Positions 15,677-63,897 of a stretch of 64,000 nucleotides of DNA are shown here, one piece after another. The number at the start of each line of letters is the position of its first letter. Positions within the stretch are counted from its first letter, which is position 1. Source of the DNA: a virus (Duplodnaviria; Caudoviricetes); IMG/VR virus record IMGVR_UViG_3300025653_000020, positions 44,872 to 108,871 of that record; one strand, given 5' to 3'. Both the position numbers and the translations under genes were made by a program. Below the pieces are notes generated by a model. It worked only from the letters and a program-made list of their open reading frames with translations. It had not been told where the DNA came from and did no database searches.

Positions 15677-16114
15677 TCAGTTATCGGAGAAAATGTGGAT
15701 GGGGCAATAGGTATCACCGTCATTGCAGGCAGTGAAATCATAGCGAAGATTGGTGTCCCAAGTTGCTTGCCAATCGACAACAACATAGGAAGGAACGTCA
15801 CCGTAAACTTCAACGGTATATTCTTCGGCAAAATCTGCCTCAGATTGATAATGTCCACGGTAGCGATCGTCGCAGTCCTGAATGTAGGAGATGCACCCCA
15901 TTTCTTCGATCAAAGCGTCAACCGCTTCATAACCGATTGCTTCACCACAGCGCACATATTCTTCATAATAAGTCACGAAATCGGACTCATTTTGCTCATC
16001 AATGAACTCTAGCATTGCTGCCAGTTCATAGTTCTCATCCAGCAATTCGTCGATCTTGCTCACAGTGTTAGCGGCAAGCATTTCACGATAGTTTGCAGTC
16101 AGAGTCACGGTCAT
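15677..16114 (-). CDS. ardA: ArdA-like antirestriction (DNA mimic) protein
   Basis: Very acidic; YRGHYQSEADFAEEY...VPSYVVVDWQATWDTNLRYDF matches the ArdA C-terminal pattern. Confidence 0.75.
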   Translation of the reverse strand: MTVTLTANYREMLAANTVSKIDELLDENYELAAMLEFIDEQNESDFVTYYEEYVRCGEAIGYEAVDALIEEMGCISYIQDCDDRYRGHYQSEADFAEEYTVEVYGDVPSYVVVDWQATWDTNLRYDFTACNDGDTYCPIHIFSDN

Positions 16115-18181: not shown

Positions 18182-18373
18182 TCAGTTAGTGTTACTTTCC
18201 TCCAAAATGTGTGGGTAGTATTCATTAACTTCTTCAGTCAATTCATCATCCGAATACTTATCATAACCTTCCATCAGGTAGTCATAACAAAGGCAGGTCA
18301 TTGTCTTAAGGTCCATGTCATCAATTATTTGCTGGACCATTTGATCTTGGAGGTCTTTGCGGTTCATTGTCAT
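18182..18373 (-). CDS. Hypothetical acidic early protein (63 aa)
   Basis: ORF track; ATGA overlap with the upstream gene. Confidence 0.7.
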   Translation of the reverse strand: MTMNRKDLQDQMVQQIIDDMDLKTMTCLCYDYLMEGYDKYSDDELTEEVNEYYPHILEESNTN

Positions 18374-21887: not shown

Positions 21888-22676
21888 ATGCAAGGATTAA
21901 TATACTCTATCTACTCTAGAGACACAGATAAGCACTACATTGGATCAACTACCAAACCATTGAATAAGGAATGGAAGGAACATTTAGATAAAGCAAACAG
22001 AATGTCTTCTAAACACTTATATAAAGCAATAAGGAAATATGGTGCTGGTAGTTTTACTTTAAAGGTCTTAGAAGAATGTCATGAATCCTTATTGAATGAG
22101 AAACTATCTTATTGGATAGAACAGTATGATGCTTACAATAAAGGATATAACATTAAACCTAAGGATATACCTTCTCCTATCATTGATCCTTCTCCTATTA
22201 TATCAGAACCTATAGTTGAAGTCAAACCTAAGAAAAAGAAATCACCTTTTGGTAATAGAACATATAAGCATTGTGGAATACATCATAAAAGAGCAATTAA
22301 GACAATAAACGTCGATACACTTGAAGAGAATGTGTATGAGAGTTTAGTTGAATGTGCAGAAGCATTAGGTGTGATTCCTTCTAACCTTTCACGTTCAATG
22401 AATAATGGATGGAAAGTTAAAGGTCACCGTATCATTAAATTAGATGATCGTCCTATATCAAAACAAATATATGGATTAGATAAGCGCACCAATAGGATAC
22501 GATTTACATTTAACAGTATCAGGGAAGCTTGTGAAACATTAGAAGGTTGTCAGAGTGGATGTCACAAATCATTGAAGCATCCACATAAGTACAGTTGGTG
22601 TGGGTGTTATTGGTTTTATGTGCATCCAATCAGTGCACCACCAACAGCAGCACCTACGGGAACTGACCATACATAA
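21888..22676 (+). CDS. GIY-YIG (Seg-like) homing endonuclease with NUMOD1-like HTH repeats
   Basis: GLIYSI...HYIGST, LYKAIRKYG, GYNI; YESLVECAEALG and FNSIREACETL; the only convincing plus-strand gene. Confidence 0.85.
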   Translation: MQGLIYSIYSRDTDKHYIGSTTKPLNKEWKEHLDKANRMSSKHLYKAIRKYGAGSFTLKVLEECHESLLNEKLSYWIEQYDAYNKGYNIKPKDIPSPIIDPSPIISEPIVEVKPKKKKSPFGNRTYKHCGIHHKRAIKTINVDTLEENVYESLVECAEALGVIPSNLSRSMNNGWKVKGHRIIKLDDRPISKQIYGLDKRTNRIRFTFNSIREACETLEGCQSGCHKSLKHPHKYSWCGCYWFYVHPISAPPTAAPTGTDHT

Positions 22677-30721: not shown

Positions 30722-31912
30722 TCAGCGGCGCACCACAGAATCCAGCATCTCACCGCGTTCAAACACAGCGTCAACAACGTTCTGCAATGCTCGCTCGGTA
30801 GAGACACCAACCTGAGAGTAAACAGGAACAACACAGAGACCAAACTTCTTGGTATCGCTACCCAAACGCAGCACACGTCCGATCGTCTGAGTCATCTCAA
30901 TCACATCCATATTGCGAAGGAAAACAACAGTCTCCAGTTCACTCACGTTGATACCCTCAGAGAGAATAGAACGGTGAAGAACAACAAAGTGTTTGTTGGG
31001 ATCCTTACCCCAAGCGTTGAGAGTGTTGAAGAACTCTTCACGGTTCACTTTCTTGCCATCAATCACAGCACCAGTTTTGCTGGTGATGTAGAGGTAAGAG
31101 TAACCACGTTGATGCAATTCAGAAGCAAAATCAGTGAATCCCATCAGATTAATGAGTTGCTTGCTTGTCTTAACACAAACAAGAATCTTCTTGGTCTGAG
31201 TGTCATCAATGGTTTCCAGCACGTTAGCACAATCAATGTTAGGATTGATCTGCTTTGCCTTATGCATATCAAACTTCTTTGCCTGAATCTTAGGAGGAAT
31301 GATGTAACCACCCTCTACCAGTTCAGGAGCAGAAACACGGCAAATAATGTCACCATAAACCTCAACATCGTTCATACCAGGTTTGTTGATAGTGACAGAA
31401 GTCTTGCGGGTTGCAGTAAAGAAGTAGCAACGTTCTGCATCGCCAGAGAAGAACTCTGTAGGAGCAAAGAAGTTACGTTTTACAGAATTGTGTGCTTCAT
31501 CAAAGTAAATGGTGTTCACTTCGATGTCTGCTTGACGCAAACGATCAAGAGAATTGTAGGTGGTGAAGATAATGCAAGCATCGCCAGCAGTGCGAGCAAC
31601 GTTAGCAAACATATGAATTTGCTTGGGGTTGGTGCTGCTGAAGTGAGAAGTTTCACCACTGTGAGCGTGCATTACGTGCACATTCTTGGTGTCGATAACC
31701 TCAAGAAATTCGCTACAGAGTTGCTCTGCAAGCAAAATACGAGGGCAAACAACAACAATGGTGGTGGCACCAATGTTGTCAATCTGTGCCTTAGCATCAG
31801 TAATCATGGTGAGAGTCTTGCCTGCACCAGTAGGCATAATCAACTGCCCCTTCATATGGGCAACCATTGCATCAACACCGCGTTGCTGGTGGGGGCGAAG
31901 GGTCAGGGTCAT
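30722..31912 (-). CDS. SF2 DEAD/DEAH-box helicase (ResIII-like)
   Basis: LRPHQ, MPTGAGKT, DEAH, TAT, LSEGIN, QTIGRVLR; start set at MTLTLRP, downstream of the promoter. Confidence 0.9.
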   Translation of the reverse strand: MTLTLRPHQQRGVDAMVAHMKGQLIMPTGAGKTLTMITDAKAQIDNIGATTIVVVCPRILLAEQLCSEFLEVIDTKNVHVMHAHSGETSHFSSTNPKQIHMFANVARTAGDACIIFTTYNSLDRLRQADIEVNTIYFDEAHNSVKRNFFAPTEFFSGDAERCYFFTATRKTSVTINKPGMNDVEVYGDIICRVSAPELVEGGYIIPPKIQAKKFDMHKAKQINPNIDCANVLETIDDTQTKKILVCVKTSKQLINLMGFTDFASELHQRGYSYLYITSKTGAVIDGKKVNREEFFNTLNAWGKDPNKHFVVLHRSILSEGINVSELETVVFLRNMDVIEMTQTIGRVLRLGSDTKKFGLCVVPVYSQVGVSTERALQNVVDAVFERGEMLDSVVRR

Positions 31913-32003
31913 CAACGAATCAATTTCAATACATACATAATAACCCCCCTGACCGCGAAAGTCAAGGGGGTTGTGTAGGTTATTCAACTGTCACACTACA
32001 TTC

Positions 32004-34564: not shown

Positions 34565-34795
34565 TTATTTGTACTTTGGAGGGCGAAGTTTAAGAGTATC
34601 AAGATCAATAACCATGACAGGATCTTTCTTATTAATATAATCTAACCACTCTTTGATCGCTTTCTCTGTCAATTCACTCTTTTGTTTTGGATAATTTATG
34701 GGTGGATAAAACCACCCACGTTTTGTTATGTCATACTGGAAGTCTTCCATATAAACTACTTTCAAATATCTTTTTAGCATCTGGATTGATATCAA
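34565..34795 (-). CDS. Hypothetical protein (true start likely MEDFQ)
   Basis: ORF track. Confidence 0.5.
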   Translation of the reverse strand: MISIQMLKRYLKVVYMEDFQYDITKRGWFYPPINYPKQKSELTEKAIKEWLDYINKKDPVMVIDLDTLKLRPPKYK

Positions 34796-35645
34796 ACAAT
34801 TGATATTGCCTATTAAGTTTTATTGCTGCTCTACCTGTTGTTCCACTACCAGCAAAAGGATCACAAACCATATCACCTTCATTGGAAAACATACTTATCA
34901 CTCGTTCCAACAACTTTACCGGTTTTTGTGTAGCATATGAAAGTTTCTCTCCATTTTGTATTTGTGAAATATCATCCCATATATCTTTGACCTGTATTCC
35001 TTTCATCTCATGATAATATCTCTTGATTCTGGGAATGCCTTGTTTGTTATATACTAACCTATTATCCTTATCCAACTCTTCCATCTTCTCTCTTGACACA
35101 TACCATTGTTGGTTATTTCCTTTCCACTCATATCTCAGGTTCGGTCTAGGAACTACCTCAGGTTGAGAATTCTTCAAAGCGCTGGTAGAATAATATCCTC
35201 TTTCATCTTTGTTACTATTCCTCACATCATCTTCATTGTATTCCTTATACTCTGGATTAAAGGTGTGTGATGCTGTTTTACTATAAACAACAATAGTGTC
35301 GTGATTTCTTTGTAACTTTTTTTCTGTGTTGTGATTACCACCAGACTTCCACACTATCTCATTCACAAACCTATTCTCACCAAATACACTATCACACACT
35401 ATTCGAATGTGGTGAGATATACGTGGTTCTACATGAATAACAATTAAACCCTTATTTGTTAGTTTATCATGTACCGCTTTGACAACAGGCAATATAAGTT
35501 CATCTCTATATTCATTAGAGGAACTAAACCTGTCATCAAAGTTGTAAAAGTCTCTACCAGTGTTGTATGGAGGATCCATATAACATAAATCTATTTTGTT
35601 CATAGTCATAATACCATCAACTGCTGGTAGAATAGTGTATTTCAT
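34731..35645 (-). CDS. DNA N6-adenine/N4-cytosine methyltransferase, beta class
   Basis: IDLCYMDPPY...YATQKPVKLLERVI...DPFAGSGTT. Confidence 0.92.
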   Translation of the reverse strand: MKYTILPAVDGIMTMNKIDLCYMDPPYNTGRDFYNFDDRFSSSNEYRDELILPVVKAVHDKLTNKGLIVIHVEPRISHHIRIVCDSVFGENRFVNEIVWKSGGNHNTEKKLQRNHDTIVVYSKTASHTFNPEYKEYNEDDVRNSNKDERGYYSTSALKNSQPEVVPRPNLRYEWKGNNQQWYVSREKMEELDKDNRLVYNKQGIPRIKRYYHEMKGIQVKDIWDDISQIQNGEKLSYATQKPVKLLERVISMFSNEGDMVCDPFAGSGTTGRAAIKLNRQYQLFDINPDAKKIFESSLYGRLPV

Positions 35646-57858: not shown

Positions 57859-60800
57859 TTATAGTGAATATTGTGCTTGGGAATAAAGAACAGTGAACTG
57901 GTCTCCAGCTCCTCCAGTATTAGATTTTCTTATTATAACATATGTATAAACATCTAATCCATCGAGATTTCCTGAATTTATAGTTTCTCCACCATAATAA
58001 TATGGTTGAATTGGTGCCGCTCCACCAGGTTGTCCAATGGCAATAGAATTATTATAGTATGCTGCTGTTGCTCCTTGAGGAGCAATAATAGCAACCGTTA
58101 TAGTTTCTCCAACTTCCATAAAGTCAGTTAAATACAACTTAGTTGGAGTAAATTGCTCTCCAAAGAATTCAATTCCCCAATTAGAAGTGCTTTCCAGCAA
58201 GTAATAATAAACGTTATTATCTCCAAGATAAATTGGTATAGTTCCAGACGCTGAGTTGTTTATTATTGTTGCTTTTTCAATAATTTCAAAAACTTTAAGT
58301 GAACCATTAATAGCTACAGATCCTTCTGCATATAACGCAAACTCCGATTTGGCACTATTTGTATTAATTCCAACTTTAGTAATAGTATGAATACCAACAG
58401 CATCTTTAACCCAAATATCAGAAACGCCAGTTAATCCAGATCCGTCACCAACAATCCTTCCTCTAACAACCAAACCAACATTAGGATCACTATCCGGATC
58501 TGTTCCAATTCCAGCTCTTCCGTCAGAAGTTACTGTAAATTGATTTGAACCAGATCCAATTACTAATGGATCAGTACCAACATATCCAGGACTATTTACA
58601 ACAATCTGATCGAAGAATTCAACATCAGCATTATCCGATAGACTAATTCCACCAAATCTTGCCCATTTATTATCGGCAGTATAAACCCAACCAACATTTC
58701 CACCAACGTTGGGGAATGCATCAAAAACAATATCGCCAGGGTTTCCTTCCTGAGCAGGTGTGGACAAACCAACAGTAACTTTTCTTGAAATAGTTGCTTC
58801 GCCCTGAATTAAAATATTATTAACTTCAATTCCATTTGCTGAATTGGAACTTATTTTCTCATTAAAAATTACTGGTCCATTAAATTGTGAAATATTATCG
58901 GATTCTAATCCACCTTCAACAATTATTGACTTACTTACTGAAACTATGTCTGGAGTAATGTATTCAATTGCTTCGTTGAAGTTTGCTTCTCCAACCACTG
59001 ATGGGATTGGAGTTTCAAATGTTTCTCCTTTTCCTGTTGAAGAAATCTTCTTATTTCCAATATAGAAATCGCCATCATTATTCATTCCAGTGTAAATGAC
59101 AGCACCTGCACCAAATTGTGAGGATTGTGAAAGAAGTTCCTCTTTTGGAGATAACTCTCTATCCTGTCTTTCTGGGAATGCTGATGAGTAATTTCCTGGA
59201 CCAAATCCAAGATATTCAAATGTGTGTCCACCTGCCCTAATAATAGAATTTCTTCTAAATTCGATTGGGAAAACATTAATCCTTCTTACCAAATCAGTTG
59301 TTACATGATTTTGTGCAATAGTTCCTAAAACTGCTCTTTCAACTTCAATGTTATTTGATAAAACAGTTCCGACAATTCTAACTATTTCATTATTAATTAA
59401 TAAGAAATCTCCAATACTAAGATCATATTTATTATCAACGACTAAAGTTGTTGCTGTCAATAAAGCATCAACCGAAGTTGTTAAATTTGTTGAAAGATTT
59501 CCATAACTATAGACCATTCTTTCAAAAACATTTTCATTATCAATAGAACTGGTTCCTCCTCTAGAAGAAAGACCATCATAATTTAAGGTTAATGAACCTG
59601 TTGTTACTGCAGTTGTTTTAACTCCAACATTAACAGTAAATGATGTTTTTGTGGGAATACTTGAAATAAGTTTTTCTCCATTAAAGAAATCGTCATCAGC
59701 ACCAGAAATGACAACCTTATTATTTTTGTTAAGACCGTGTTTTGCTGGTGTAGTTGCATATGTTGCAATTCCAGTTGCTGAATCATACGCCAATCCTAAT
59801 GCAGGTATAGTTAATGATTTTCCTGTTAAAGTATAATAAGATGGAGAAAATTCTGTTAGTGCTACACCAGCAGAAACTGATGGATTGTTAATTGGAGAAA
59901 CTGATTGTGCACTGAAACTCTTTGATCCAGTAATTCCTGTTACTTTGTATACTCCATTATATTTTTTATAATTTTGATTAACTATTCCTTCAACTTTTAA
60001 ATTGTCTCCAATATTGTTATAGACTTCACTTACGGTAACAGTTCCTGTAACGTGCCCAGATATCGTTGCAATACCAACAACATTTAAAGTTTCTCCTGAA
60101 ATATATCCACTTCCACCATCAATAATATCAACATCCAAGAGAGAACCTGAAGCGTCAACAATAACTTTCGCAGAAGCTTCTGAACCAAATCCAGTAGTAC
60201 TTACTAATTGTGCATTGTAGAAAGTTTCCGATAATCCAATTCCAGTTCCATAATTTGAACCTGGAAGTCCTATCGTTACAGAAATTGCTCTGTTTAATCC
60301 ATGCTCAATATCTGTAAATACTGTATGGTTTGATGTTGGAACGCCTACAGCACCATTACTAACAATCTCAAAAATTGTATTTTGATTTTTACCAAAGTCT
60401 AAGACTGTTTTTTGAATAGTTTCTTTTGTAATACTATCTTCAGGATCACTTACAACAACTTTTCCTATGGGATTTGGAACAGCAAATGATTTTGCTGCCT
60501 TTGGATCTGAATTTGGATTATCTCTATTGAATCTTGGATAGAGATTTATAATTGGTTGACTTATATTTAAAGAATCGTATGGAGAAACTGAAGGTGAATT
60601 TGAAGAATTTGTAACAGTTAAGTGGTATATACCATCCTGCTGCCCTTTAATATAAGTTTGTATTTCTTCAGACTCATAAATCGAATAAATTTCACTATAT
60701 CTCTTTTTAGAGAATCTTGGAAGACTTCTATCTCTTCTTGATACGTTATTTTGGAAAGAACCGGGATTACTTGAGAGAACATATTTAAAAGTTCTTCTTG

Positions 60801-63477
60801 AAGGAACTTCACTTACCGTAAATACGCCATTGAATCCAATCCTATCAGTTGCATTTGGATTTTCAGAACTTTCTATATTGCTTATTTCAACTGTAGATCC
60901 TACAAAAAGATCATGAGGAATTTCTGTAGTTATAGTAGATTGACCAGATAACCAAGAGGCATTAGATATAAATCTAAAATTTCTTAATTCTGAAATATTT
61001 TCAAGAGTTGCCGGAGTTGAAGATCCTCTAAGATATTTTGTAACTTCATTATCAGTCAATCCAGTTGTCTTATTGGATTCTTGGATAATAAATCCATCAG
61101 TTGGAGGTCTTGAAGTTATATTTGATGATGACGGAATTACATATCTCAATCTATACATTGTATCAAGTAAACTTCTAGAATCTAAAGTTCTTGTGATATA
61201 AGTTCTAGGAGTTGAATTACTTGAAAGTGATGGTAGAATTGGACCTATAGTATCATCAGAATTATCGATAGAAATATACCAGTTTCCAGTAACTGAAGCA
61301 GTTGGATCAAACTGAATTGGATGACCTATCTCTCCGGATTTCTTATCAGAAACTCTACTTACTACTCTTAAGTTTCCTCCTCTATTATTGACTATTATAA
61401 ATCTCAAACTATTTGCATCATTTAAAGATTTTGCAATCTTAAATTGAGTTAGTGGATCTGAAAGTCCATCAGTTATTGCAAAATAAACAGTATCACTTTC
61501 AACTCCATCTGGAAGATATCCATTTTCGCTAACAATTCTTATCTTTTCGCCATTACTCAGACCATGAACAGAAGAACAGTTAAAAATATTGTCAATAATA
61601 TTATTTAAATTTCCATTTTTACCAATATTTGTTGATTTTTCTTTTCCATTAGTTGTTCCTGGAATAACAATTTTTGAAGAATATGTTTTTCCATCAATGG
61701 TTACATTTAAATAATCATTTTCTTTTGCTCCAATTCTAAATCCATCAATTACAGAATTTGGTAAAATTGATCTATCTGTTTTTGTATAGAGGTATAATCT
61801 GCTTGGATTAATGAGGTTTTTGTCTATAGAATCAAACTCCAGAGAAGTTTCTCCTCCATCATTTTCTCTTGGGGGAATTATGTGGGTGACATATCCAACA
61901 TCGTCTCTTAGGAATGCTTTATTTCTAAATGCGGATGCTGTTAATGAGTTTGCACCAAAGTTTGAGTTTGAGTTTGTAATTGAAAGATCACCACCAGATT
62001 CTGCTAAGAAATGTCTGGTAAATCCAATAGCAAAAACGGAAACTACCTGAATAAATGCATTATTACTACACTTAATATGAACACTTTCATATGAAGGTTT
62101 ATGCTTTGCCAAAGAATCTGAATAGATATTTTGATCACCCGTTGCTAATTGATCAACATATTCTCCCTTTGTTGGACTATACTTAACAAATGCTTTGTTA
62201 TCTTTTTGCAGACCAATTCCCGTAAACTGGGCAACAACCATACTCTTGAATCCACCAGCTTTATCTCCATCTGCATGAAGACCATTCATTCCATAAACCG
62301 ATCTCAAAGAACAGTTAAAGATATATGGAGATGCCGAGTTAACAGTGTCTAAAATTAAGTTTACAGTTGCTCCTGTTGGATTCGCAATATTTGGAACAAG
62401 AGGTGGAATTTGAACTTGATATTCAAACTCAGTATCACTATTAACTTTACTTACTACTTGCTGTCCATTATATCCATCTTCAGCAATTCCACTAATCTGA
62501 ACTGGGGAATTGATATCTAAATTAGTAAATGGTTCGGTAAGTTGAACTGTAATTGTTTCATCTGTATTAATTCCATCTCCAGCACGAATACTAGAAATGC
62601 CAACTTCTTCACCTCTCGACCCTACAATTTGGAATTCATCAATCTTGGGTTCAATATCGATTGTTGCTGATGGATAATCTGGTTCAATACCTCTATCACT
62701 TGTTTCACCATAAGCAATACCTACTTTCTCGTAGTAAATATCAAGATCAGTTCTATCAGTGGAGAAGTTCTGAATAAATGCATCATTAATTGCTACCTTA
62801 TTGACACCATCTGCATATTCAAAACAAGTTAGTTTGTGGTGAGAAAATCTTGGGAAGAATGAATTTGCAGTGTAATCAATATAGCAAGGAGTGTTTGGAT
62901 CTGCATCAAATACAGTAAACTGCCATAAGTAACAAGCACCAGTTACTCTAAAAATTGCAGACCTTTCAACATTTACTCCATCAACATCATCTGGATTTGG
63001 AACATATCTTGGGCGAATTTTAGTCTTACGAAGATCATATCCAACGATAGAAGTTCCTCTTGGAATGATAACACCACCATAAATTGAGTTTAATTTATAG
63101 AGAGCATTATTTTCTGAGTTTAAATTAAAGTTAGTATTAATATCAAAAGGAGAGAAATCATCGCTGGAAGTGCCATTTCTTAAACGATACTGATTTACTC
63201 CTAAAGAAGCATCAGGGATCCATCCTGGTCTATTGTCAACAATATGCTCTCCAGGATAGAGGAGAATAGTTGTTTTACCAAATCTGTCATTATCAGTTCC
63301 TCTTTGATAAGAGAATCTCGCAGATTCAATTAATGCTCTTTGTATAGTTTTAAAGGGTCTAGTTAAAGAGTTGCCTTTGTTTTCTATACTATCCGTTGAA
63401 TCGATACTTGAAGGATCAACATAAAGAATTTCCCCACGAGTACTCTTCAGAAAATTATCCAGACGACTGAGACCCAT
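57859..63477 (-). CDS. Large conserved virion structural protein (1872 aa)
   Basis: MGLSRLDNFLK...PFKTIQRALIESARFSY; SMVVAQFTG; GHTFEYLGFGPGNYS. Confidence 0.85.
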   Translation of the reverse strand: MGLSRLDNFLKSTRGEILYVDPSSIDSTDSIENKGNSLTRPFKTIQRALIESARFSYQRGTDNDRFGKTTILLYPGEHIVDNRPGWIPDASLGVNQYRLRNGTSSDDFSPFDINTNFNLNSENNALYKLNSIYGGVIIPRGTSIVGYDLRKTKIRPRYVPNPDDVDGVNVERSAIFRVTGACYLWQFTVFDADPNTPCYIDYTANSFFPRFSHHKLTCFEYADGVNKVAINDAFIQNFSTDRTDLDIYYEKVGIAYGETSDRGIEPDYPSATIDIEPKIDEFQIVGSRGEEVGISSIRAGDGINTDETITVQLTEPFTNLDINSPVQISGIAEDGYNGQQVVSKVNSDTEFEYQVQIPPLVPNIANPTGATVNLILDTVNSASPYIFNCSLRSVYGMNGLHADGDKAGGFKSMVVAQFTGIGLQKDNKAFVKYSPTKGEYVDQLATGDQNIYSDSLAKHKPSYESVHIKCSNNAFIQVVSVFAIGFTRHFLAESGGDLSITNSNSNFGANSLTASAFRNKAFLRDDVGYVTHIIPPRENDGGETSLEFDSIDKNLINPSRLYLYTKTDRSILPNSVIDGFRIGAKENDYLNVTIDGKTYSSKIVIPGTTNGKEKSTNIGKNGNLNNIIDNIFNCSSVHGLSNGEKIRIVSENGYLPDGVESDTVYFAITDGLSDPLTQFKIAKSLNDANSLRFIIVNNRGGNLRVVSRVSDKKSGEIGHPIQFDPTASVTGNWYISIDNSDDTIGPILPSLSSNSTPRTYITRTLDSRSLLDTMYRLRYVIPSSSNITSRPPTDGFIIQESNKTTGLTDNEVTKYLRGSSTPATLENISELRNFRFISNASWLSGQSTITTEIPHDLFVGSTVEISNIESSENPNATDRIGFNGVFTVSEVPSRRTFKYVLSSNPGSFQNNVSRRDRSLPRFSKKRYSEIYSIYESEEIQTYIKGQQDGIYHLTVTNSSNSPSVSPYDSLNISQPIINLYPRFNRDNPNSDPKAAKSFAVPNPIGKVVVSDPEDSITKETIQKTVLDFGKNQNTIFEIVSNGAVGVPTSNHTVFTDIEHGLNRAISVTIGLPGSNYGTGIGLSETFYNAQLVSTTGFGSEASAKVIVDASGSLLDVDIIDGGSGYISGETLNVVGIATISGHVTGTVTVSEVYNNIGDNLKVEGIVNQNYKKYNGVYKVTGITGSKSFSAQSVSPINNPSVSAGVALTEFSPSYYTLTGKSLTIPALGLAYDSATGIATYATTPAKHGLNKNNKVVISGADDDFFNGEKLISSIPTKTSFTVNVGVKTTAVTTGSLTLNYDGLSSRGGTSSIDNENVFERMVYSYGNLSTNLTTSVDALLTATTLVVDNKYDLSIGDFLLINNEIVRIVGTVLSNNIEVERAVLGTIAQNHVTTDLVRRINVFPIEFRRNSIIRAGGHTFEYLGFGPGNYSSAFPERQDRELSPKEELLSQSSQFGAGAVIYTGMNNDGDFYIGNKKISSTGKGETFETPIPSVVGEANFNEAIEYITPDIVSVSKSIIVEGGLESDNISQFNGPVIFNEKISSNSANGIEVNNILIQGEATISRKVTVGLSTPAQEGNPGDIVFDAFPNVGGNVGWVYTADNKWARFGGISLSDNADVEFFDQIVVNSPGYVGTDPLVIGSGSNQFTVTSDGRAGIGTDPDSDPNVGLVVRGRIVGDGSGLTGVSDIWVKDAVGIHTITKVGINTNSAKSEFALYAEGSVAINGSLKVFEIIEKATIINNSASGTIPIYLGDNNVYYYLLESTSNWGIEFFGEQFTPTKLYLTDFMEVGETITVAIIAPQGATAAYYNNSIAIGQPGGAAPIQPYYYGGETINSGNLDGLDVYTYVIIRKSNTGGAGDQFTVLYSQAQYSL

Positions 63478-63508
63478 TTTTATTAATACTTATAGTTCCG
63501 TTATAAGT

Positions 63509-63516
63509 TATTTATC
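63509..63516 (-). promoter_or_regulatory. T4-type late promoter (GATAAATA)
   Basis: About 32 bp upstream of the 63477 start. Confidence 0.65.
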
Positions 63517-63520
63517 ACAT

Positions 63521-63546
63521 AAAAAAACCTCCCAGAGGGAGGTTTT
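63521..63546 (-). terminator. Intrinsic terminator
   Basis: AAAACCUCCC-UCU-GGGAGG followed by U7 on the minus strand. Confidence 0.85.
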
Positions 63547-63582
63547 GGTCAGCACATAAAGTGCATTTCCTTCACACGGACA
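63521..63582 (-). ncRNA. Candidate ~60-nt sRNA
   Basis: Lies between a perfect promoter and the terminator; only 3-5-codon ORFs inside. Confidence 0.6.
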
Positions 63583-63587
63583 TTAAT

Positions 63588-63616
63588 ATTATAGTGTAAT
63601 TATTCTTTTGTGTCAA
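63588..63616 (-). promoter_or_regulatory. Perfect sigma70 promoter TTGACA-17-TATAAT
   Basis: tgtcaa at 63611-16, attata at 63588-93. Confidence 0.85.
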
Positions 63617-63723
63617 GTTTTTTTATGATGGAAATAATACTCCAAGTAAAAAACAGAGTGACTGCTACGGCACCCATTGTGGTTATTGCAACTACACCAT
63701 ATCTATAAAAAAACTAAGTATTT

Positions 63724-63897
63724 TTACTTAGTTTGTGTTGATTCTAAGATATATTCTACAGTGTTTGCAATATCATTCATAGCAACACGAAGATCTTGTT
63801 GTTGTCCTGATTCTTGACGGCATATTGGACGACGATTGTCTGTAAGGGTCCAACGCCAAAGACTCATATCGTTACAATACCAAAGATTAATTCTCAT
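63724..63897 (-). CDS. Conserved cyanophage hypothetical protein (57 aa, MRINLWYC...)
   Basis: WRWTLTD...QESG...AMNDIANTVEY. Confidence 0.7.
   Translation of the reverse strand: MRINLWYCNDMSLWRWTLTDNRRPICRQESGQQQDLRVAMNDIANTVEYILESTQTK

Follow-up and report, generated by a model that had tools for sequence, protein, structure and literature searches.

Genomic Setting and Anatomy of the Unit

The putative transcription unit described here lies in a window (the whole stretch of DNA analysed, 64,000 nucleotides) that is part of a 108.9-kb contig from a T4-like cyanomyovirus with 36.3% G+C, a contig estimated to represent about half a genome. The minus strand carries all large genes in the window, and the nearest named relatives at the locus of the unit are the Synechococcus phages Bellamy, S-SM2, and S-SCSM1. 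Read toward and through the unit on the minus strand, the features are as follows.

Minus strand, first in order toward the unit: 79-aa open reading frame (ORF), PHROG of unknown function
63600..63677, minus strand: 25-aa hydrophobic ORF MGAVAVTLFFTWSIISIIKKLDTKE, upstream context, whose 3' end holds the -35 hexamer
63616-63588, minus strand: whole sigma-70 promoter, 12/12, 17-nt spacer
63611..63616, minus strand: -35 hexamer TTGACA, overlapping the final codons of the 25-aa ORF
63588..63593, minus strand: -10 hexamer TATAAT, separated from TTGACA by the 17-nt spacer
63560..63580, minus strand: antisense block TCCGTGTGAAGGAAATGCACT, 19/21 identical to the reverse complement of the host tRNA-Val(CAC) gene
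63577-63563, minus strand: family seed within this block
63547..63559, minus strand: continuation with weaker likeness to the antisense of the tRNA D arm, from gapped alignment and fold
63564-63552, minus strand: small hairpin GCAC-TTTAT-GTGC, mirroring the D arm, with its 3' half inside 63547-63559
63521..63546, minus strand: intrinsic terminator with a 10-bp stem, 3-nt loop, and seven T (stem-loop 63546-63524)
63516-63509, minus strand: late-promoter-like word GATAAATA before the fibre gene, called by sequence
63494-63487, minus strand: late-promoter-like word TATAAGTA before the fibre gene, called by sequence
57859..63477, minus strand: tail-fibre gene of 1872 aa, downstream of the unit (phrog_529 tail fiber, E = 0)

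The promoter is the only 12/12 site among the 16 promoter-like sites found between positions 60000 and 64000, an interval that is not enriched in such sites (17.6 were expected). Its spacing predicts an RNA start at approximately 63582-63578, and 10 nt separate the end of TATAAT from the GTGTG that opens the seed. Five of the 10 base pairs in the terminator stem are G-C, and the 65-nt RNA folds with a free energy of -21.6 kcal/mol (z = -3.75), a stability reached by none of 200 shuffled sequences. A first-pass annotation of this DNA had described the promoter, small hairpin, terminator, and coordinates, and that description proved correct in every detail. Its view of the locus as a stand-alone promoter-to-terminator unit lacking a conserved ORF also holds, with TTGACA and TATAAT 17 nt apart, a terminator, and no ORF of 20 aa or more in the unit interior. 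The five-codon ORF MHFMC, which the annotation had raised as a possible conserved element, does exist but lacks conservation, its letters differing in S-SM2 and Bellamy. A PHROG search with the upstream 25-aa ORF (63600-63677) returned no match.

The two words between 63516 and 63487 resemble the T4 late-promoter consensus, and the fibre mRNA is probably transcribed from them without any involvement of the small unit. They fall in a stretch of the type GATAAATAA..CATAAC.GAAC.TATA, located 20-40 nt before the fibre start codon (63487-63516 in the window), which was noted by eye and without counting in most of 59 distinct fibre-upstream regions, with or without the small RNA. This stretch probably supplies the fibre gene with its late promoter and leader. 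Metatranscriptome contigs from three studies (X1-X3) cover the fibre gene without differences and end at 63487, 63482, and 63475, leaving 63520-63817 uncovered, although contigs of this kind cannot show small RNAs, transcript starts, or strand. Their ends fit, as a weak hint, a separate start of the fibre mRNA near the late-type words. In a relative, a single contig (X5) extends over 63251-63572, from the fibre gene across the terminator to a point inside the seed; this one contig hints at some read-through from the promoter of the small unit. The metatranscriptome contigs of identical sequence come from runs labelled freshwater metagenome.

Elsewhere in the window, an ORF resembling a homing endonuclease of the GIY-YIG/NUMOD type is located at 21888-22676 on the plus strand, amid minus-strand genes, and near it lie a DNA methylase (34731-35645) and a helicase (30722-31987).

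A Family of Related Elements in Cyanomyoviruses

The first-pass annotation would have been undermined by a seed lacking conservation. The single-stranded 5' part of the RNA is in fact kept in many cyanomyoviruses, in which a promoter lies 6-10 nt ahead of the family word GTGTGAAGGAAGTGC and a hairpin, variable in sequence and covarying in its pairs, follows it. Bellamy and S-SM2 have, at the same place in their genomes, TTGACA, 17 nt, TAATAT, then GTGTGAAGGAAGTGC, and then a terminator of different sequence. A scan of IMG/VR for GTGTGAAGGAANTGC returned at least 117 loci, to which strict rules were applied (word behind a promoter and before a hairpin). These rules retained 67 of the listed loci, distributed over several settings: 23 follow gp23, the gene for the major capsid protein, 18 precede a fibre gene, 25 belong to tRNA arrays, each immediately ahead of a tRNA gene, and one is located elsewhere. 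A promoter-like site was present in 64 of the 67, and its -10 element ended 6-10 nt before the word in 63 of these and 3 nt before it in the remaining case. Among the hairpins there are 59 distinct sequences (median z, -4.9). That the 15-mer does not vary over the 67 loci is in part built in, since the search required the word. At the other 50 loci, the free position of the pattern was A in 16, C in 10, G in 17, and T in seven. Several of the 17 loci with G look real by eye and follow a late-type CTAAATA that the rule does not score. The family was collected by pattern and alignment scans, which may miss diverged copies.

Among 17 copies in the gp23 context the seed is invariant, while compensatory change is seen in six of the eight hairpin pairs. 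Copies directly before tRNA genes have the hairpin and lack the T run, and thus the hairpin is not merely a terminator; 5' processing of the adjoining tRNA would release the same small RNA from these copies. In some tRNA-array copies (L043, L048, and L098; L050 and L091) the hairpin is replaced by a longer stem enclosing an extra domain of 40-70 nt, of which there are two types, each present in more than one contig and neither with an Rfam match.

The element is abundant and occurs in both marine and freshwater cyanophage contigs, as well as in the named phages S-SM2, S-RIM8, Syn30, S-SSM5, S-RIM2, and Bellamy, all of which have Synechococcus hosts. At the loci of Syn30 (L447), S-SSM5 (L440), and S-RIM2 (L441), no sigma-70 promoter precedes the seed and terminator, which instead come after the late-type word CTAAATA or ATATAAATA at a distance of 6-8 nt, and the same late-type arrangement lies upstream of the seed at L018, L028, L046, and L095. 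The late-type words in the three named phages imply that the element does not simply serve an early host-takeover function, and, judging by the promoter sequences, the time at which the RNA is made, early or late, may differ from phage to phage.

The unit in the window is a somewhat diverged member of this widespread cyanomyovirus family of very short predicted RNAs. Its promoter ends 6-10 nt before the seed and lies on the same strand as the neighbouring genes; a stable hairpin, in this case the 10-bp terminator, comes after the seed and leads into a T run, where other members have a T run or a tRNA gene; and its word is complementary to the tRNA-Val(CAC) anticodon loop and one strand of that tRNA at 19 of 21 positions. 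A close relative, L281, has a different upstream gene and a different promoter sequence, yet the same RNA.

Complementarity to Host tRNA-Val(CAC)

Searches of host-family genomes connected the seed with a single tRNA gene. The 12-mer GTGTGAAGGAAG occurs in 68 of 121 host-family genomes, nearly always once, with 72 matches compared to 24 for the reversed control. When 30 of these loci were fetched, 27 proved to be the reverse complement of one tRNA gene, which ARAGORN called as tRNA-Val(cac) in four of four tested loci, while three loci of the other kind lacked a tRNA. The 15-mer of the family is the exact reverse complement of the tRNA-Val(CAC) anticodon loop (7 nt), the 5' strand of the anticodon stem (5 nt), and the three preceding bases, and the family word as a whole is exact against the antisense tRNA over 15-16 nt. 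In a larger set, CGTGTGAAGGNNNNGC matches 202 of 301 host-family genomes as a single copy, and all but 16 of the matches listed read CGTGTGAAGGAAGTGC. Host genomes without CGTGTGAAGGNNNNGC are mostly smaller than ~1.9 Mb, and five small, Prochlorococcus-sized genomes contain only a tRNA-Val(gac) arm that is three mismatches away.

Because a pattern search fixes the word that it finds, an unbiased set of 77 fibre-gene homologue loci with 59 distinct upstream regions was also assembled. Against the antisense tRNA, 18 of the 59 regions reach scores of 13-19, whereas scores in the sense control stay at or below 12. The exact word is present in ten of the fibre-upstream regions, L281 is of the window type, and L304 and L321 differ in the stem part of the word. 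The remaining variants follow other parts of the same tRNA: L282, L283, L330, L318, and L286 are antisense to its 3' half, from the anticodon loop and the 3' strand of its stem through the variable loop to parts of the T arm and acceptor end, and L336 is antisense to the 5' half as far as the acceptor stem. Over the variants, identity is highest on GTGTGA, the complement of the anticodon loop and the part common to all of them. Together, the variant halves and the shared GTGTGA suggest descent from an inverted tRNA-Val gene with selection for ~15 nt, and this pattern suggests that the selected stretch starts at the anticodon loop and may run from there in either direction.

The complementarity is specific. 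When 41 distinct tRNAs from one marine Synechococcus genome were compared with the coding strand of the 77 fibre loci, only Val(cac) gave an antisense match of at least 13 nt (17 nt), and the other 40 tRNAs gave matches of 9-12 nt. Two further phage matches were set aside: that in S-CAM4 is the phage's own tRNA-Val(UAC) gene, and that in S-SSM6a is coding. Host genome G148 has CGTGTGAAGGTAGTGC at a putative tRNA site in place of the usual word, and phage locus L321 reads GTGTGAAGGTAGG, a pair of differences that may reflect phage and host changing together.

These comparisons bear on two explanations that do without pairing to the tRNA. The seed might instead serve a different function: it might act on a site in an mRNA of host or phage, be bound by a protein, or work at the level of DNA as a promoter-proximal operator. 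The seed does contain a Shine-Dalgarno-like AAGGA, and its position at +1 to +15 would suit an operator too, but a function of this kind would explain neither why the identity with one tRNA is exact over 15-16 nt nor why some variants follow other parts of tRNA-Val(CAC), and the covariation of the hairpin is at the RNA level. We consider such a function rather improbable. Alternatively, the shared word might mark a recombination site, serving as an att-like core through which the phage integrates at the host tRNA-Val gene or exchanges sequence with it. The core sites of integrases often lie in tRNA anticodon loops and have a length close to that of the seed, and a Prochlorococcus podovirus reportedly carries a stretch identical to a host tRNA gene. 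Carriers of the present element are T4-like lytic myoviruses, however, the word comes with a promoter and a hairpin on the strand that is transcribed, and which half of the tRNA is retained varies from one variant to another. In an attP-type comparison, the likeness in the window runs toward the 5' side of the tRNA instead of its 3' end. A recombination site is extremely improbable.

The Copy in the Window

The window copy, TCCGTGTGAAGGAAATGCACT, departs from the antisense tRNA at two positions, both of them G to A. Its local alignment score of 17 was reached by none of 2000 shuffles (sense control, 6), and when the alignment is extended with gaps through the D-arm mirror, 27 of 36 columns are identical. 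No antisense-tRNA match in the 108.9-kb contig ranks above this copy. Two likenesses scoring 14, located outside the window at positions 15943-15966 and 18283-18300 of the contig (G000), belong to a repeated coding segment of a fibre-like protein, in which a hairpin-like word resembles a tRNA anticodon arm, and were judged to be chance within coding repeats. The locus itself is neither a tRNA gene in the sense orientation nor a tRNA-like element, as no cloverleaf was detected, and ARAGORN finds no tRNA genes on either strand of the window or of the whole 108.9-kb contig.

As predicted from its sequence, the window RNA would pair with the host tRNA over 14 contiguous plus 3 plus 2 bases, interrupted by two A-C mismatches. 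The exact 15-mer of the window, GTGTGAAGGAAATGC, was found in none of 121 host-family genomes, and no host arm with U opposite the A variant of the window (the AAAT form) is present among the CGTGTGAAGGNNNNGC matches listed. The 3' bases of the window seed can also fold into the small hairpin of the RNA. Taken together, the two mismatches, the lack of an exact host arm, and this hairpin indicate that the window copy may be weakened or decaying.

A rival reading takes the block to be a fossil, an inverted tRNA-Val remnant that is eroding between a promoter and a terminator and does nothing in trans. The role of the unit would then be local, either to shield the late fibre gene from early transcription arriving from upstream or simply to end upstream transcripts. 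Besides the two mismatches of the window copy and its lack of an exactly matching host arm, the deletion variants resemble pseudogene decay, the terminator also ends the upstream genes while the fibre mRNA seems, on weak evidence, to start just downstream, and the X5 contig crosses the terminator and ends inside the seed. On the other hand, decay would not preserve one 14-16-nt word in three unrelated genomic settings, always 6-10 nt past the promoter word and in front of a hairpin, when the hairpins themselves have come to differ so far as to have 59 sequences, nor does it account for the anticodon-loop complement being the part retained in all variants. The tRNA-adjacent copies, with their hairpin but no T run, likewise require of the hairpin more than termination. 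A fossil or purely cis-acting element is unlikely on this evidence, and if the element is one, inverted tRNA-gene remnants would still be selectively kept beside promoters, which would call for an explanation.

Relationship to Yfr1 and Yfr2

The first-pass annotation had proposed that the RNA is a phage sponge that titrates the host sRNA Yfr1 or a related sRNA. The Yfr1 motif on which it relied, ACUCCUCACAC, is correct, as it appears in the description of Yfr1 in PMC2190773 and Rfam model RF01116 matches in three Synechococcus loci. Both Yfr1 (RF01116) and Yfr2 (Cyano-1, RF01701) were found in marine Synechococcus genomes. The claimed complementarity to Yfr1 is real and also short: the window seed reads GTGTGAAGGAAA, and pairing requires a bulged A after 6 bp, followed by 3 bp. 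Cofolding with Yfr1 is nonetheless favourable, with a gain of -10.2 kcal/mol for the window RNA and -15.8 kcal/mol for the S-SM2 type.

On this reading the RNA would be a phage version of the Yfr1 antagonist Yfr2, pairing with host Yfr1 and with Yfr10, which has the same motif. Yfr1 is described as abundant, with its motif single-stranded (PMC2190773), and Yfr2 is described as binding Yfr1 through its conserved 5' motif and relieving Yfr1 repression (PMC6778093). Yfr2 and the phage unit are alike in architecture, each a short RNA in which a conserved single-stranded 5' motif precedes a stem-loop, and Yfr2 acts by pairing with another small RNA (PMC6778093), as is proposed for the phage unit. 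The motif words are also similar, the 5' consensus of host Cyano-1, UGUGUGAGGAG, resembling the phage seed. This consensus is a perfect complement of the Yfr1 motif, however, whereas the phage word contains two additional A residues, the very bases that give it an exact 15-nt match to host tRNA-Val(CAC). The phage unit also lacks the GGAAACA-type loop of Yfr2. Moreover, variants L282, L283, L330, L286, and L318 keep GTGTGA or less of the Yfr1-complementary part (about six bases) and yet retain 12-15 nt matching tRNA-Val(CAC).

Covariance models gave a similar picture. At the gathering score, Rfam has no match anywhere in the window, and a search of 63400-63750 at E values up to 10 returned, with no Cyano-1 match, only the sub-threshold, terminator-driven hits STnc370, Phe_leader, and Yfr10. 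The last of these (RF02362) scored 15.9 bits against a gathering score of 43, with E values of 9.6 and 0.7, and was rejected. Seven related loci gave only tRNA and wcaG matches. In outline, therefore, the unit resembles a phage base-pairing RNA or sponge and Yfr2, but by these comparisons it is not recognised as a Yfr2, Yfr10, T-box, or tRNA element. We regard action on Yfr1 as quite improbable; as a target it is displaced by the stronger and more specific match to host tRNA-Val(CAC). What survives of the sponge proposal is its general form, in that a trans-acting antisense RNA against a small host RNA remains the best kind of explanation, while Yfr1 as the target is unsupported.

A Proposed Antisense RNA Against tRNA-Val(CAC)

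The observed anatomy of promoter, seed, hairpin, and terminator, its conservation, its exact complementarity, and its specificity for one tRNA lead to the reading favoured here, in which the unit would be transcribed as a phage antisense RNA that pairs with host tRNA-Val(CAC) and alters its function. We judge the chances of this reading to be evenly balanced. The strong promoter would place the 5' end of the RNA at, or a few bases before, the conserved single-stranded word, with the hairpin following. The first seven bases of the seed would form a toehold on the exposed anticodon loop of tRNA-Val(CAC), and those that follow would open the anticodon stem by pairing with one of its strands. The paired tRNA would then be withdrawn from decoding and charging or exposed to nuclease, which would slow the translation of GUG-rich host messages while the GUG-poor phage is spared, its relatives bringing a tRNA-Val(UAC) of their own. 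An inverted copy of the host tRNA-Val(CAC) gene would be the most likely ancestor of the family.

Predicted energies are consistent with preferential pairing to the host tRNA. The seed duplex has -28.3 kcal/mol with host Val(CAC) compared to -15.4 and -10.7 kcal/mol with the phages' own tRNA-Val(UAC), and cofolding of whole molecules with tRNA-Val(CAC) gains -19.3 kcal/mol for the window RNA and -17.0 kcal/mol for the S-SM2 type, although these duplex and cofold energies ignore the tertiary structure and base modifications of a tRNA, which when folded and modified resists invasion. Two relatives carry tRNA genes, S-SM2 (G001) 11 and the complete relative G002 12, each including tRNA-Val(UAC).

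Codon usage differs strongly between phage and host. GUG makes up 5.8% of valine codons in this phage (4.1 per 1000 codons) and 5.8-10.7% across the phages examined, compared to 50% (32.9 per 1000) in host loci, a difference that involves no GUG-specific avoidance, since all G-ending four-fold codons are rare in the three phages. The host also has a tRNA-Val(UAC) that may read GUG, so that loss of tRNA-Val(CAC) need not stall translation. With respect to host range, the element (two or fewer mismatches, in the right setting) is present in six of eight phages isolated on Synechococcus and in none of four isolated on Prochlorococcus, a sample of 12 phages for which a one-sided exact test by hand gives approximately 0.03, uncorrected for relatedness.

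A fuller version of the proposal is offered tentatively, and we hold it to be somewhat doubtful. In this version, T4-like cyanophages of Synechococcus would encode a dedicated anti-tRNA of 45-65 nt, derived from a captured host tRNA gene turned around behind a promoter, that docks on the anticodon loop, unzips the stem, and disables tRNA-Val(CAC), resulting in codon-selective host shut-off while the phage relies on its own tRNA-Val(UAC).

Comparison With Known Systems and Implications

Several known systems share one or another feature with the proposed RNA. T-box leaders read a specific tRNA via its anticodon, using 3-4 nt of pairing within a large structured leader that acts in cis on a terminator. 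The phage unit would likewise be an RNA that reads a specific tRNA through the anticodon, but its pairing of at least 15 nt would open the anticodon stem, it has no conserved antiterminator, and its tRNA-adjacent copies have no terminator. As a candidate assignment the T-box leader was rejected, as there is no Rfam match and the ~60-nt RNA has no structures other than a small hairpin and a terminator. Primer-binding sites of retroviruses and retrotransposons pair with the 3' end of a tRNA, or with the internal part of a cleaved tRNA, and prime reverse transcription. These too are viral sequences kept exactly complementary to one host tRNA, whereas the phage unit involves no reverse transcriptase and has the anticodon arm as its target.

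The anti-sRNAs AgvB and AsxR of E. coli O157 are encoded by prophages and sponge Hfq-dependent regulatory sRNAs. They resemble the proposed RNA as short phage-borne RNAs that neutralise a small host RNA by base pairing, and differ from it in that the complementary partner of the phage unit is a tRNA and that the cyanobacterial hosts are largely without a working Hfq pathway. Hfq is described as absent from most Prochlorococcus strains (PMC2518516). Phage tRNA genes are described as replacing host tRNAs cut by anticodon nucleases (PMC10264068, PMC11464382); there too a phage alters the tRNA pool with the anticodon loop as the focus, but such genes supply tRNAs, while the phage unit would remove or mask one. 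Finally, the cyanophage non-coding RNAs described in PMC9964418 are CfrI, PhotoRC-II, wcaG, manA, glnA, and abiF, which share with the present family the character of small conserved RNA elements of T4-like cyanophages. In contrast to it, they are cis-regulatory motifs or a psbA antisense RNA, and none matches the unit. A search of the full-text literature, with a coverage outside which most subscription journals fall, found no paper in which a phage RNA is described as antisense to a tRNA of its host.

It is established that phages supply tRNAs and that hosts cleave tRNAs in defence; a virus-made antisense RNA against one host tRNA would, if real, be a third way to contest the tRNA pool. Because tRNA-Val(CAC) reads the commonest valine codon of the host, disabling it would amount to codon-selective shut-off executed by an RNA, and would explain how host shut-off could be codon-biased in viruses that keep a large part of the ocean's primary producers in check. 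The combination of a loop toehold with stem invasion would also be a natural design rule for RNAs that inactivate a chosen tRNA. Since the element occurs in named, cultivable phage-host pairs, these ideas are directly testable.
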